The translations under genes and the position numbers were made by a program. The notes under the pieces were generated by a model. The model did no database searches. It saw nothing but the letters and a program-made list of their open reading frames with translations, and was not told where the DNA came from. Of a stretch of DNA of 64,000 nucleotides, positions 30,694 to 33,955 are shown one piece after another. The DNA comes from a virus (taxonomy: Duplodnaviria > Heunggongvirae > Uroviricota > Caudoviricetes). The stretch lies in the IMG/VR virus record IMGVR_UViG_3300010049_000010, positions 64,749 through 128,748 of that record. One strand, written 5' to 3'. Each line of letters begins with the position of its first letter. The stretch's first letter is position 1.

Positions 30694-31140
30694 TTAAATT
30701 AACTCTTCATCATCAAATAAATCTGATTCTTTTCTTTGTTTTTCTATTTTTTCTATTTGAGCGTCTATATTTTCCCAAGTATTATAGTGACTGATTAGCG
30801 CGTGAGCAGATTTATATCCATCGCCATTTGGATTTTTATACATTTTAACGCCGCCTTTTAGTTCATAATTATTTACGTCATAATTATTTGGAACAGCTAT
30901 TAGAATTCTGTAACCTTGAAAATCTATCCATTGTTCTTTCATATAATCCTCATCATCTAATTTTTTAGGAGCTCTCCAATACATTTCAACTGGTAAGCAT
31001 AAATCATTTTTTCTATCTTCAATCCAAGGTTTGTTTTTAATCATTCTAATTTCACAATGAATTGGAATCGCTATATATCTAACTTCACTGAATAAATTAA
31101 ATGGTCCATATTTATGGGTGTAACAAACTTCTTTTATCAT
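30694..31140 (-). CDS. LFDEEEL-tail family member 1
   Basis: Ends ESDLFDDEELI. Confidence 0.55.
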   Translation of the reverse strand: MIKEVCYTHKYGPFNLFSEVRYIAIPIHCEIRMIKNKPWIEDRKNDLCLPVEMYWRAPKKLDDEDYMKEQWIDFQGYRILIAVPNNYDVNNYELKGGVKMYKNPNGDGYKSAHALISHYNTWENIDAQIEKIEKQRKESDLFDDEELI

Positions 31141-31448
31141 AATTCATTTTCATCAAATAATTGCAATGACCTCTGAAACTTTCTATTGTTTAAGTTTGTG
31201 CTTTTATTATTTAAACAACGATTAAGTTCTCTTAAATATCTTCTATCAAGATGCTCTTCAATTCTAATTTTGTTTTTATATCCATGAAGATCATTAATCC
31301 AACCTTCATGAATAAAATATTCCATAATTCCATTGAAACAAGGATGATCTGTTTGAATAACATGAATCGCCCATTTTCTTGGAAGATATAATTTTAGCCA
31401 CAAATCTTTATACCTAAAACTATATTCTCCAAATCTTGATTCTGTCAT
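31137..31448 (-). CDS. LFDEEEL-tail family member 2
   Basis: Ends LQLFDENEL; ATGA overlap with the upstream gene. Confidence 0.5.
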   Translation of the reverse strand: MTESRFGEYSFRYKDLWLKLYLPRKWAIHVIQTDHPCFNGIMEYFIHEGWINDLHGYKNKIRIEEHLDRRYLRELNRCLNNKSTNLNNRKFQRSLQLFDENEL

Positions 31449-31476
31449 AAATAAAAAGCGGGCCCGAAAGCCCGCT
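31447..31476 (-). terminator. rho-independent terminator (minus strand)
   Basis: Stem agcgggc/gcccgct with loop ccgaaa, followed on the minus strand by a T-rich run. Confidence 0.5.
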
Positions 31477-31483
31477 GTAAAGT

Positions 31484-32512
31484 TTATCTACCAGGTTGTA
31501 ATACTGCTGCTGATCCATTAGGAGCGAGCGGTATGTACATCGGCACATCAGTTCCAGGAGCAAGTTTTGTTGCCCTCATAAGAGCCACTTCATAATTCCA
31601 TCTTGCTTGCTGTACTTGGAAGTTATTTCCAATAAGTCTATTATAATCTGCTTCACCTTGACCTTCAAGCCGTCTTGCTTCTGCTTCACCACGCGCTGTA
31701 GTTATCATTGCTTCCGAATTAAGTTGTGCTGCTCTCAAAGCGGCCTCCGCTCTTGCTACAGTAGCTCTTGCTTCAGCTTCCGCTTCAATTGAAACTCGTC
31801 TTTGTTCTTGTTCAACACGATCTGCATCTGCTCTAGCTCTTTCAATACTTGCTGTTGCTACAACTCGTTGTTCTACAATTCTATCTACTTCTGCTGACCA
31901 ATCAAAGTCTTCAATAATCAAGTCTACAATTACTATTGGTAAGTGAGTGACACGAGAAATCGCATTCTCAAGTGCCGCATTAGCAATCGTTGTAGTATTT
32001 TGTCCAATATCAAAAACAGTGTAAGTACCAATAACAGTTCTCAATCCTTCTGAAGCTGCTCGTAAAAGTATCTCATCAATATTTTGTTTTGTAAAACTTC
32101 TAATCGCGTGAGCAATTTTAGTTTCATCATACCGCCAAAATACTGAGGCCTGTACGCCAATTTCTTGCGTGTCAAGTGATACTGCTGCATTACGATTTAA
32201 TCTCATTTGAATCTTTGATTCATTTGGTGTAATTGATCTCGTAATAACTCCGCCGACGAGAGGTACTTTAAAGTGTACGCCCGGCATTAATACGTCATCA
32301 CCAACTACCGCATTAAACATTGTTTTTACACCGCGCTCTGTCGTACCGACACAAGCAATCGGATTCAAAACGAGAAACGCGATAAGCAATGCGACACATC
32401 CAACACAAAATTTAATTATGTTGCCGTAATTTGGCACTGTTTCAGTGTAAGTGCCATTTCTTCCTTGTCTTTCGACATCTGTTGTCCAGAAACTTTTCTT
32501 TGACATTTTCAT
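31484..32512 (-). CDS. SPFH/band-7 (prohibitin/HflK-like) membrane protein
   Basis: N-terminal TM helix, an SPFH core, then an Ala/Glu/Arg coiled-coil (EAEARATVARAEAALRAAQL). Confidence 0.7.
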   Translation of the reverse strand: MKMSKKSFWTTDVERQGRNGTYTETVPNYGNIIKFCVGCVALLIAFLVLNPIACVGTTERGVKTMFNAVVGDDVLMPGVHFKVPLVGGVITRSITPNESKIQMRLNRNAAVSLDTQEIGVQASVFWRYDETKIAHAIRSFTKQNIDEILLRAASEGLRTVIGTYTVFDIGQNTTTIANAALENAISRVTHLPIVIVDLIIEDFDWSAEVDRIVEQRVVATASIERARADADRVEQEQRRVSIEAEAEARATVARAEAALRAAQLNSEAMITTARGEAEARRLEGQGEADYNRLIGNNFQVQQARWNYEVALMRATKLAPGTDVPMYIPLAPNGSAAVLQPGR

Positions 32513-32539
32513 CTCCTAAATGATTTTAATTTATATTAA

Positions 32540-32899
32540 CTATGTTAATTCTTCTTCATCAAACAAGTCACAAGTGTGGTCTACTCCAATAGAATATTTT
32601 TCAACAAGATAGTCTGGAGAATAATATCCTCTCTGATGCTCTGAGTAATAATCTCCCGTTCCCACTCTTCTTAAATCTACAATTTTTGGTAATAATATAA
32701 TATAAGAAACTCCGTTATGTTCAATTTTATGCTCTGCCATTTCCGCATCAGCCCATTTAGTGCAGCCTCTTATATCATTATGATATCCGCAAATGTAACA
32801 ATTTATTTCACATGGGCCTTTAAAATTTTGATTCGAGATCCAAGTCTGATAAGTTTGCATATTTCCAAATTTCATAATTATTTCATAACTCGTCATCAT
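32540..32899 (-). CDS. LFDEEEL-tail family member 3
   Basis: Ends CDLFDEEELT. The start was moved to ATGATG (MMTSYE), which overlaps the upstream stop as ATGATGACGAGTTATGA. Confidence 0.5.
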   Translation of the reverse strand: MMTSYEIIMKFGNMQTYQTWISNQNFKGPCEINCYICGYHNDIRGCTKWADAEMAEHKIEHNGVSYIILLPKIVDLRRVGTGDYYSEHQRGYYSPDYLVEKYSIGVDHTCDLFDEEELT

Positions 32900-33101
32900 A
32901 GAATAAACCTGTTCGTTCTTGTTTAGGTGGATGTAAATATGGTGTTTCCATATTAGAATAATCAATTTTTCTGTTATTGTATGAAGAAGAATGGTTTTTT
33001 GTAAAACCATATTTTTCACTATGCCATTTACAATACTCATGATAATCTTTTGGTGCGCCATAATATTCTTGATCGCGCATCATATTATCTATAAATGTCA
33101 T
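32883..33101 (-). CDS. LFDEEEL-tail family member 4
   Basis: Ends TGLFYDDEL. Confidence 0.5.
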   Translation of the reverse strand: MTFIDNMMRDQEYYGAPKDYHEYCKWHSEKYGFTKNHSSSYNNRKIDYSNMETPYLHPPKQERTGLFYDDEL

Positions 33102-33316
33102 TCTAATTCCTCCTCATCAAATAAACTTGAAGCTTTCCTCTCAAACTCTAATTGTTCTTTATATTCTTTTTCTCTTTTGTATAAAATATCTGTATTTATA
33201 ATATAATAACCTCTATCATCTTTTTCCATTTGAATAATTCCATTATCAATAAGGTCTCCATAAACGGAAAATTTCTTAAATTGTATTAATCCATTTTCAT
33301 TATATTTTATTTTCAT
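33098..33316 (-). CDS. LFDEEEL-tail family member 5
   Basis: Ends SSLFDEEELE. Confidence 0.5.
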   Translation of the reverse strand: MKIKYNENGLIQFKKFSVYGDLIDNGIIQMEKDDRGYYIINTDILYKREKEYKEQLEFERKASSLFDEEELE

Positions 33317-33498
33317 AATTCATCATCATCAAAAAGTTCGGTATTTTCGTATGAGTAAACTTCTCGTGGTAAATCCATTTTCATTATACTATCAAGCATC
33401 ATTTTTTCTACAGGAGAAGGATTTTGAAAATGACTTAAAAAGGCAAATTGATCTAAATAGCGTTGATATTTATATTCGGCAGATTTTTCTGGACCCAT
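33313..33498 (-). CDS. LFDEEEL-tail family member 6
   Basis: Ends TELFDDDEL. Confidence 0.5.
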   Translation of the reverse strand: MGPEKSAEYKYQRYLDQFAFLSHFQNPSPVEKMMLDSIMKMDLPREVYSYENTELFDDDEL

Positions 33499-33500
33499 TA

Positions 33501-33680
33501 TTCTAACTCCTCTTCATCAAATAATTCTGATTCTTTTTCAGCATTTCTTTTTATTATATCACCGACACCAGCCATTGTTATAATAGCATTATATTGTTTT
33601 AGAAACTGTTCTGGAGTATTATCTCTCCAAACTTCAAGAATATCTTTTTCAAAAAAGAAATCACTTCTATCAAACATTAA
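33501..33680 (-). CDS. LFDEEEL-tail family member 7 (59 aa, below the track cutoff)
   Basis: Hand-translated: MFDRSDFFFEKDILEVWRDNTPEQFLKQYNAIITMAGVGDIIKRNAEKESELFDEEELE. Confidence 0.45.
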
Positions 33681-33955
33681 ATTTCCTCATCATCAAATAA
33701 CTCTACTGGTAATTCGGCAAATTTTTGATCAGATGCATGATCATCTTTTAGTTTTTTCGCGAAATAAGAAACTGTAATTTTTTTGAACTTTTCAAATAAT
33801 TCTTCAAAATTACTTCTTTCAAGAATATATGAGCCAATTCTTATATTATAAAACAACGCATTATCAATTTCATGAAAAAACTTTTGATCAAATTCTTTAA
33901 ATCTATCGTCTTCTCTGCCATTGCATAATTCTTTAACTTTCACGTGAGTTCTCAT
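33677..33955 (-). CDS. LFDEEEL-tail family member 8
   Basis: Ends VELFDDEEI. Confidence 0.5.
   Translation of the reverse strand: MRTHVKVKELCNGREDDRFKEFDQKFFHEIDNALFYNIRIGSYILERSNFEELFEKFKKITVSYFAKKLKDDHASDQKFAELPVELFDDEEI

Follow-up and report, generated by a model that had tools for sequence, protein, structure and literature searches.

The window analysed here, 64,000 nucleotides of viral DNA (positions 64,749 to 128,748 of IMG/VR record IMGVR_UViG_3300010049_000010), is part of a 328,413-bp metagenomic contig (ena:ERZ27264051:k141_7313039). Between positions 30694 and 33955, its minus strand carries an array of eight small genes whose products share a short acidic C-terminal tail built around Leu-Phe-Asp (Table 1). 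The eight open reading frames (ORFs) and their C-termini, reported in the first-pass annotation, are all present. The source collection's own gene caller predicts the same eight, of 92, 59, 61, 72, 72, 119, 103 and 148 amino acids (aa), including the 59-aa ORF said to be missing from the earlier ORF track. An ORF of 173 aa in that track has its true start at 32899 (119 aa) or 32875 (111 aa). In translation, all eight tails read LF[D/Y][D/E][D/E/N][D/E][L/I], followed by zero or one residue.

In six of the eight array genes the start of the next gene overlaps the stop codon, and tail-less small genes with the same overlapping junctions lie nearby (33933-34094, 34488-34715 and 30393-30677). An SPFH/Band-7 gene, which the array had been described as flanking, sits inside it. 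The strong terminator-like hairpin directly after this gene likely splits the array into two transcription units.

Table 1. Coordinates of the tail array, of other tail carriers, of the candidate clamp and of a second family of shared termini. Positions are those of the window unless another contig is named.
Feature	Position	Strand	Remarks
92-aa ORFan	33677..33955	(-)	C-terminus …PVELFDDEEI; motif codons 33680-33700; no Pfam or PHROG match
59-aa ORFan	33498..33677	(-)	C-terminus …KESELFDEEELE (SELFDEEELE); motif codons 33504-33524
61-aa ORFan	33313..33498	(-)	C-terminus …NTELFDDDEL
72-aa ORFan	33098..33316	(-)	C-terminus …ASSLFDEEELE; GAG-GAG-GAA also serves the next, overlapping gene as Shine-Dalgarno sequence
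72-aa ORFan	32883..33101	(-)	C-terminus …RTGLFYDDEL; variant with Y at +2
119-aa (or 111-aa, start 32875) Cys-rich protein	32540..32899	(-)	C-terminus …TCDLFDEEELT
103-aa ORFan	31137..31448	(-)	C-terminus …RSLQLFDENEL
148-aa ORFan	30694..31140	(-)	C-terminus …KESDLFDDEELI (ESDLFDDEELI); C-terminal half paralogous to 32540-32899
SPFH/Band-7 protein	31484..32512	(-)	Inside the array, tail-less, not a member; Pfam Band_7 5.6e-18
Intrinsic-terminator-like hairpin and T-run	31457..31476	(-)	8 bp, 6 GC; AGCGGGC…GCCCGCT; directly after the SPFH gene
131-aa protein, upstream end of the array	34091..34486	(-)	Internal variant GIFTEEELK, DNA 34201-34222, ~40 residues before the C-terminus
78-aa Cys-rich ORF between the split family-A polymerase halves	17908..18144	(-)	Short tail …DSCELFD
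~134-aa coiled-coil protein	56850..57254	(-)	…TTDILFDD; homologous to the …EKNILFD family of L116/L119/L121
137-aa coiled-coil protein	60658..61071	(-)	C-terminus …QQDNDLFD
626-aa protein	61121..63001	(-)	N-terminal core QEAIQLFDDQDQ, residues 7-18; LFDD at 62968-62957
391-aa cryptic DnaN-type β sliding clamp, three domains (predicted structure)	24410..25585	(-)	Candidate tail receptor
MKIRNGFVSNSSSSSF(V/I)I family, window	30393-30677, 22958-23371, 24035-24400
MKIRNGFVSNSSSSSF(V/I)I family, L003	12929-13435, 13587-13946, 19312-19686
MKIRNGFVSNSSSSSF(V/I)I family, L100	4332-4772, 4962-5330, 5582-6280
MKIRNGFVSNSSSSSF(V/I)I family, L116	11181-11555, 11715-12002, 11999-12403

The tail pattern is far above chance, and the excess is statistically overwhelming. 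A relaxed regular expression applied to all six frames of the window returned exactly eight matches, each 0-1 residue from a stop, against a mean of 0.18 matches in 50 shuffles of the window. LFD tripeptides in the window's non-overlapping ORFs fall within the last 12 residues in 9 of 11 cases, although these positions make up 5.4% of all residues. In a control set of 968 kb from other viral contigs, LFD was found in the last 12 residues of 2 of 1320 genes.

The consensus was derived from 34 instances containing LF, with the LL variants (ELLD, LLSDEEW) left out, and reads [K/E]-E-S-[E/D]-L-F-D. Leu and Phe are invariant in 34 of 34, and the residue before Leu is E, D or S in 22 of them. Nine instances end with LFD; elsewhere the chain runs on as [D/E]-x-E-Φ, and Glu occupies +5 in all 23. 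The ending FD(D/E)EEL, first proposed as the common signature, is present with some variation in the eight array genes, but its acidic DEEEL portion is optional, as orthologues and other genes stop at …LFD. Substitutions keep the residue class (F to L, D to S/T, L to I/V/F/Y/W). In 26 of the 34 instances, 1-6 residues separate the motif from the C-terminus; the others belong to extensions at the C-terminus or to N-terminal regions. Its placement varies in the way typical of a linear motif: directly at C-termini, 8-24 residues ahead of them, as a tandem copy (KLFDDSELFDDED, then the stop) and near the N-termini of large proteins. Examples of such tail peptides are NAEKESELFDEEELE, RNAEKESELFDEEELE and AIEAKESELFD.

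Tail carriers are spread across at least 45 kb of the window, all on the minus strand, which is also the strand of the replication genes (split family-A DNA polymerase, ThyX, PD-(D/E)XK nuclease and ATP-dependent ligase). For the gene blocks of the plus strand, no assignment to structural functions was obtained. One of them is the ORF lodged within the split polymerase, for which a similar tail had been noted and which does end in SCELFD. In the 626-aa protein, QLFDDQDQ occupies residues 11-18. Just past the left edge of the window, two further proteins end in …GLEFDEEDDD and …DLFEEEEND…DLLDENDV.

Two side observations concern these carriers. The polymerase is split into 16983-17891 and 18436-20541, with 17908-18144 between them, and the insert differs by genome: the 78-aa ORF in the window, a LytB/IspH-like gene (17069-17911) in the related contig L116 and a 53-aa ORF in the related contig L119. 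The 137-aa carrier also has the sequence 'LSQDEIDQLL' near its N-terminus, which resembles the N-terminal peptide of the FliM/FliN type. A full-length flagellin is encoded in the related contig L100 (10689-11567; Pfam Flagellin_N 2e-44, Flagellin_C 4e-21), and together these may reflect phage interference with host motility.

The motif is clade-wide across related megaphages, whose contigs carry 4-13 tails each in short (ELFD-COOH), long (LFD[DE]xEΦ) and internal forms. L003/L121, L116/L123 and L119 are syntenic, with ligase, small genes, in some cases SPFH, PD-(D/E)XK nuclease, clamp, ThyX and split PolA in this order. Their tails include LLFSDDEW…, ELFSEKEF…, ELFTENEY… and …KILFD in L003/L121; …ESELFD, WLFDDEEY…, …ENILFD and …KNILFD in L116/L123; and …ELLD, …WELFD, LLSDEEW…, ELLSDEEY… and …THLFD in L119. 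A degenerate DNA pattern scan of IMG/VR, in which the matches were otherwise mostly internal chance ones, yielded L059, identical to L100/L128, with 13 tails in ~35 kb, the tandem copy among them. The metagenome-wide DNA pattern scan gave only single, uninformative matches among those listed, and GenBank phages showed only trivial 70-nt matches of DNA similarity to the window.

In the long form, the +6 residue is aliphatic (L/I/V) in the window and L100/L128 and aromatic in L003, L119 and L116, where S/T is also found at +2. An attempt to show orthology between the array genes of the window and those of L003 and L119 failed, so that this lineage difference is only suggestive; it hints at possible co-evolution with a phage-encoded receptor. 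The SPFH gene is missing at the equivalent place in L116 and L123, which do have tails. When it was used as an anchor to find tail-bearing phages, its closest IMG/VR relatives (L001, L002) proved to be unrelated phages without tails, and it was rejected for this purpose. Its position within the array is thus incidental.

Codon usage and alignments argue that the tail is under selection at the protein level and is not a DNA repeat, an alternative that the first-pass annotation had named as one that would refute its reading. The genome has 31% G+C and a strong codon bias. When the motif copies are compared in pairs, their codons agree in 70% of comparisons, where codon usage alone would give 63%. 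A family of 22-nt direct repeats (77-91% identity) does overlie the tails, and GAG accounts for 41% of the Glu codons of the motif, against 9% genome-wide. Where the next start overlaps the stop, GAGGAG or GAGGAA in the acidic codons forms an embedded Shine-Dalgarno sequence, which accounts for the GAG preference but not for the Leu-Phe-Asp peptide. At 33098-33124, 33498-33524 and 33677-33700 the coding is dual, the acidic tail being at the same time the Shine-Dalgarno sequence of the overlapping downstream gene. The tail also ends genes that precede 16-29-nt spacers or long gaps (30694, 32540, 17908, 56850 and 60658), and relatives encode the same peptide with other codons and class-conserving substitutions.

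Two alignments point in the same direction. In the four-member coiled-coil family of 56850-57254, at ~30% identity, the terminal L-F-D is among the invariant columns. It is likewise invariant among 32540-32899, 30694-31140 and a relative's 123-aa protein (28-34% identity), where the two window copies have the DEEEL(T/I) extension and the 123-aa protein lacks it. The orthologue of 32540-32899 in L116 ends in …ENILFD. No hairpin or T-run was found to accompany the tails.

The bodies that carry the tail are of several types, Cys-rich (Zn-ribbon-like) and coiled-coil among them. None of the eight array proteins contains a Pfam or PHROG family, and literature searches for the peptide returned nothing relevant, in agreement with the earlier remark that no described family with this signature was known. 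The 148-aa protein retrieved only itself from 5.8 billion sequences, and the 119-aa protein only itself from 1.8 billion. The one additional hit, the 1106-aa repeat protein P0018, looks like a satellite-like translation, and we discounted it as a spurious match due to chance. Once the tails are taken off, the 148/119-aa pair is the only one that is detectably related. The bodies, first described as dissimilar, are therefore mostly unrelated, except that 30694-31140 and 32540-32899 share a domain, as seen through the relative's 123-aa protein.

The product of 24410-25585 had been proposed as a DnaN-like clamp and as a possible hub for the tails. Its AlphaFold2 model, built from an alignment of 12 metagenomic homologues, reached a predicted local distance difference test (pLDDT) score of 89.9 and a predicted template modelling (pTM) score of 0.84. 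In a Foldseek search of the PDB, the model matched bacterial β clamps over its full length (P. aeruginosa, E. coli, Borrelia and Streptococcus β; E 3e-19, TM 0.63-0.70, 10-14% identity), and in BFVD it matched annotated phage β clamps. The model thus has the features of a DnaN fold, namely three tandem clamp domains, a length in the range of ~360-400 aa and a full-length match.

The fold, as predicted, supports the proposal, but a sequence-level match is lacking: the sequence matched nothing in Pfam (DNA_pol3_beta), PHROGs or the PDB sequences, which leaves it outside the Pfam definition of DnaN, and hhalign against E. coli DnaN gave a null result (probability 0.3). Homologues in IMG/VR were missed by a single-sequence search and found by an alignment-based one. 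In the tail-bearing relatives the clamp is conserved at 50-65% identity. An alignment of its last strand by eye (…AVVAKMLP vs …YVVMPMRL, with invariant Lys388) is only suggestive. No gene for a clamp loader or for Pol III α came to light in the 64 kb of the window or in ~10 kb past its left edge. If the assignment is right, a replisome component can escape Pfam, PHROG and HH-suite searches and yet stand out in predicted structure.

Several neighbouring genes deserve mention in their own right. A second family with a shared terminus has the near-identical N-terminus MKIRNGFVSNSSSSSF(V/I)I followed by complete divergence, with many paralogues (Table 1). Its sole match, confined to the first ~20-35 residues, is to PHROG 7397, a family of unknown function. 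Of the copies in the window, one lies directly after the clamp gene and another directly after the tail array. A conserved 587-aa protein of unknown function (27075-28838; L003 14861-16231; L119 5645-7282) has a very acidic N-terminal region. Its family contains the tail-like stretches DMTFEDEL (window, L003) and APELFEDDDEM (L003), and in relatives its C-terminal part (GPGGKRVIDNW…) is also encoded by small genes of its own.

Beside the ligase lies a tandem, overlapping pair of B12-binding radical S-adenosylmethionine (radical-SAM) genes (36897-38147 and 38119-39360) that are not present in the syntenic flanks of relatives. An auxiliary cluster (52947-53951, 55719-56381, 59358-59891, 59891-60628 and 57229-57810) encodes a NadR-like AAA_28/cytidylyltransferase, a PnuC-type nicotinamide mononucleotide transporter, an AAA_33 kinase-like protein, an RNA ligase and an HD-domain protein, which suggests a module for salvage of nicotinamide adenine dinucleotide and for RNA repair. 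Between ThyX and the polymerase, a 250-aa protein (20552-21304) matches the phage Hsp20/α-crystallin family PHROG 432 (E 3.7e-5).

Taken together, the tail is probably a peptide of some kind for recognition between proteins. The idea first suggested, of one docking peptide shared by diverse scaffolds, fits the protein-level selection, the position at termini, the spread through the clade and the predicted clamp fold; we infer the docking role from these and, more weakly, the clamp as its partner. Tentatively, we regard a β-type sliding clamp, either the phage's own or that of the host, as the partner. A short linear docking motif would then attach many small, fast-evolving and mostly unrelated phage proteins to one receptor, most likely the peptide-binding cleft of the DnaN-type clamp encoded at 24410-25585, with the host clamp as another possibility. 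Leu-Phe would act as the hydrophobic anchor, as it does in QL[SD]LF, while the acidic residues on either side would touch a rim of basic ones. Regulators or effectors tethered to DNA-loaded clamps would then be the role of the variable bodies (Zn-ribbon-like, coiled-coil and other), in the manner in which gp33 and gp55 of T4 and Mor and MuC of Mu make use of a clamp.

In the tails, the Leu-Phe anchor mostly follows E, D or S, and most of them lie at or near a terminus, both as in known clamp motifs. The consensus for β-clamp partners is QL(S/D)LF, mostly terminal and usually C-terminal, with variation tolerated (PMC9690074). In phage Mu, the small late activator MuC binds the clamp via QHDLF and QPDLF, according to a 2026 study, while Mor has only 'DLF' of the consensus, and its L5A substitution abolishes toxicity and Pmiddle transcription; the consensus of the Mor/MuC family is Qx[D/E][L/M]F (PMC12867686).

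Other observations weigh against the clamp as partner. The position four before Phe is E, S, D, T, K or others, Gln not being among the most frequent. As Mor functions with only 'DLF', the missing Gln lowers the likelihood that the tail is a clamp motif without excluding it. The acidic stretch often continues C-terminal of the motif, unlike in canonical clamp motifs. The family-A polymerase halves, the ligase and the PD-(D/E)XK nuclease have no LFD tail, so that the expected core clients of a clamp do not use it. Sequence alignment to E. coli β fails, and the binding cleft of the clamp cannot be mapped from it. Around the clamp homologues of L124 and L133, which are ~30% identical, no tails occur within 11-21 kb, and no clamp was seen in the ~45 kb read of the tail-richest contig, the fragment L100/L128/L130.

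A docking motif for a different hub, such as the family-A polymerase (as in T7), a host or phage RNA polymerase, a target of the single-stranded DNA-binding protein (SSB) type or another phage receptor, is possible but less probable than the clamp. All protein-level evidence for a docking peptide applies to it equally, the Gln of the canonical clamp motif is missing, and the lineage-specific +6/+2 classes suggest a fast-evolving phage-encoded receptor of some kind. The tail is also strongly acidic, like T7-type tails, and the polymerase of this phage belongs to family A. T7 tails, however, depend on an aromatic residue at the very C-terminus; in the present tails Asp comes after Phe, and often at least five further residues as well. 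The clamp is moreover the only candidate receptor identified, and an invariant Leu-Phe after D/E/S is specifically clamp-like (PMC12867686, PMC9690074).

Recognition by an enzyme, with the tail as a protease degron that times the turnover of early proteins or as a substrate for modification by the radical-SAM enzymes (36897-39360), seems unlikely. ClpXP-type degrons do work as C-terminal tags on unrelated proteins, the pair of B12-binding radical-SAM genes is found ~1 kb upstream of the array-side ligase, and the tail-rich L100 likewise has a radical-SAM gene. However, tblastn found no radical-SAM homologues in the flanks read of the syntenic L003, L116, L119 and L123, and the conserved co-location with such an enzyme that would mark precursors of ribosomally synthesised and post-translationally modified peptides was not found. 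The carriers are scattered and not grouped with a modifying enzyme; internal, N-terminal and tandem copies are unusual for C-terminal degrons; and no protease gene was seen in the window.

It is very unlikely that the array genes are diverged tandem duplicates whose tail is simply what has changed most slowly and has no particular partner in common. Paralogy is detectable for two members, and tandem arrays of small genes in phages often arise by duplication, but the same tail ends distant genes of other architecture (coiled coil, Zn-ribbon-like) and recurs in the distantly related contig L100/L128. That 7-11 residues stay invariant amid otherwise total divergence implies a function of that segment. 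A nucleic-acid element read as protein (a ribosome-binding or coupling signal, a recombination boundary, a terminator or an att-like repeat) could draw on the direct repeats, the overlapping starts and the GAG preference, but is effectively refuted by a codon identity no higher than codon usage predicts, a motif that is always in frame and always reads LFD, overlapping neighbours without a tail, and the different codons of relatives.

If the clamp is the partner, phages would use clamps as recruitment platforms on a much larger scale, and the space of clamp motifs would gain a Gln-less form with an acidic C-terminal extension, which bears on the prediction of clamp clients and on peptide-based clamp inhibitors. 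One might go further and suppose that this clade of ~330-kb megaphages has a private code, in which a clamp unrecognisable by sequence is paired with an ELFD (±[D/E]xEΦ) tail on dozens of ORFans, although we consider this doubtful. Were it true, factors for host takeover, transcription and regulation would all land on the DNA-loaded clamp as a general platform, with far more clients than the three of T4 or the Mor and MuC of Mu. The genes of huge phages are mostly ORFans, and one shared tail offers an experimental handle on the common partner of more than ten proteins.

Among known docking systems, the β-clamp motif, including Mor and MuC of Mu, is alike in its Leu-Phe anchor after D/E/S, the part that anchors in the cleft, in its location at the extreme C-terminus and at times N-terminally or internally, and in its presence on small phage regulators and enzymes; a DnaN-type clamp is also encoded, by predicted structure, in the window's own genome. 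E. coli Pol III α itself ends in …QVELEFD, as we checked in its sequence. The tails differ in having no Gln four before Phe, a nearly invariant Asp after Phe and the [D/E]-x-E-Φ extension, and in sitting on dozens of ORFans rather than on polymerases or repair enzymes; their binding to a clamp is putative.

In T4, gp43, gp55 and gp33 have interchangeable hydrophobic and acidic C-terminal clamp epitopes on flexible linkers. Clamp-activated transcription is still supported when gp55 and gp33 are fused so that the gp55 epitope comes to lie internally (PMC2988020). The design is similar to that of the tails, with short hydrophobic-acidic C-terminal peptides common to unrelated proteins of one phage on variable linkers, and in T4 they dock on the phage's own clamp and so link replication with other processes. 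The two are alike in kind only: gp45 is a PCNA-like trimer with the pattern LDFL[F/Y] (gp43 ends in …ASLDFLFG and gp55 in …PSLDFLYEAND, both checked), whereas a DnaN-like three-domain clamp and ELFD(D/E)xEΦ are found here. None of the tails has the S-L-D-F-L-[F/Y] terminus, and T4 has three carriers against at least 11 in this window.

The SSB tip (…DDDIPF-COOH) is likewise a C-terminal docking peptide with an acidic run and hydrophobic residues. It differs in serving many receptors from one carrier, where the tails presumably serve one receptor from many, and in requiring a terminal Pro-Phe carboxylate, in which none of the LFD tails end. On the same 328-kb contig, past the left edge of the window, a 183-aa protein (L129 15759-16310, minus strand) has such an SSB-type tip, …NIDEPIDDIPF. 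It has no match in Pfam and could be a cryptic SSB or a mimic of the SSB tail; since a separate protein of the same genome ends in …DDIPF, the LFD tail would be a distinct docking code.

In T7, the acidic, aromatic-ended C-terminal tails of gp2.5 and gp4 bind the family-A T7 DNA polymerase. Like the present tails they are acidic C-termini, they have an aromatic residue that is essential, and the phage has a polymerase of family A. The T7 proteins, of which only two carry such a tail, end with the aromatic residue itself; in the present tails Asp comes after Phe, with or without five further residues, and the sequences are not similar. Eukaryote-type readings (KDEL-like retention signal, FFAT motif, ribosomal P-stalk …GLFD) were dropped, because the genome is tailed-phage-like and has Shine-Dalgarno sites, operons in which genes overlap, and replication genes of bacterial type. 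Docking on a clamp or another hub through a terminal tail is a known principle, and the tail described here is a variant within it and not a new category.

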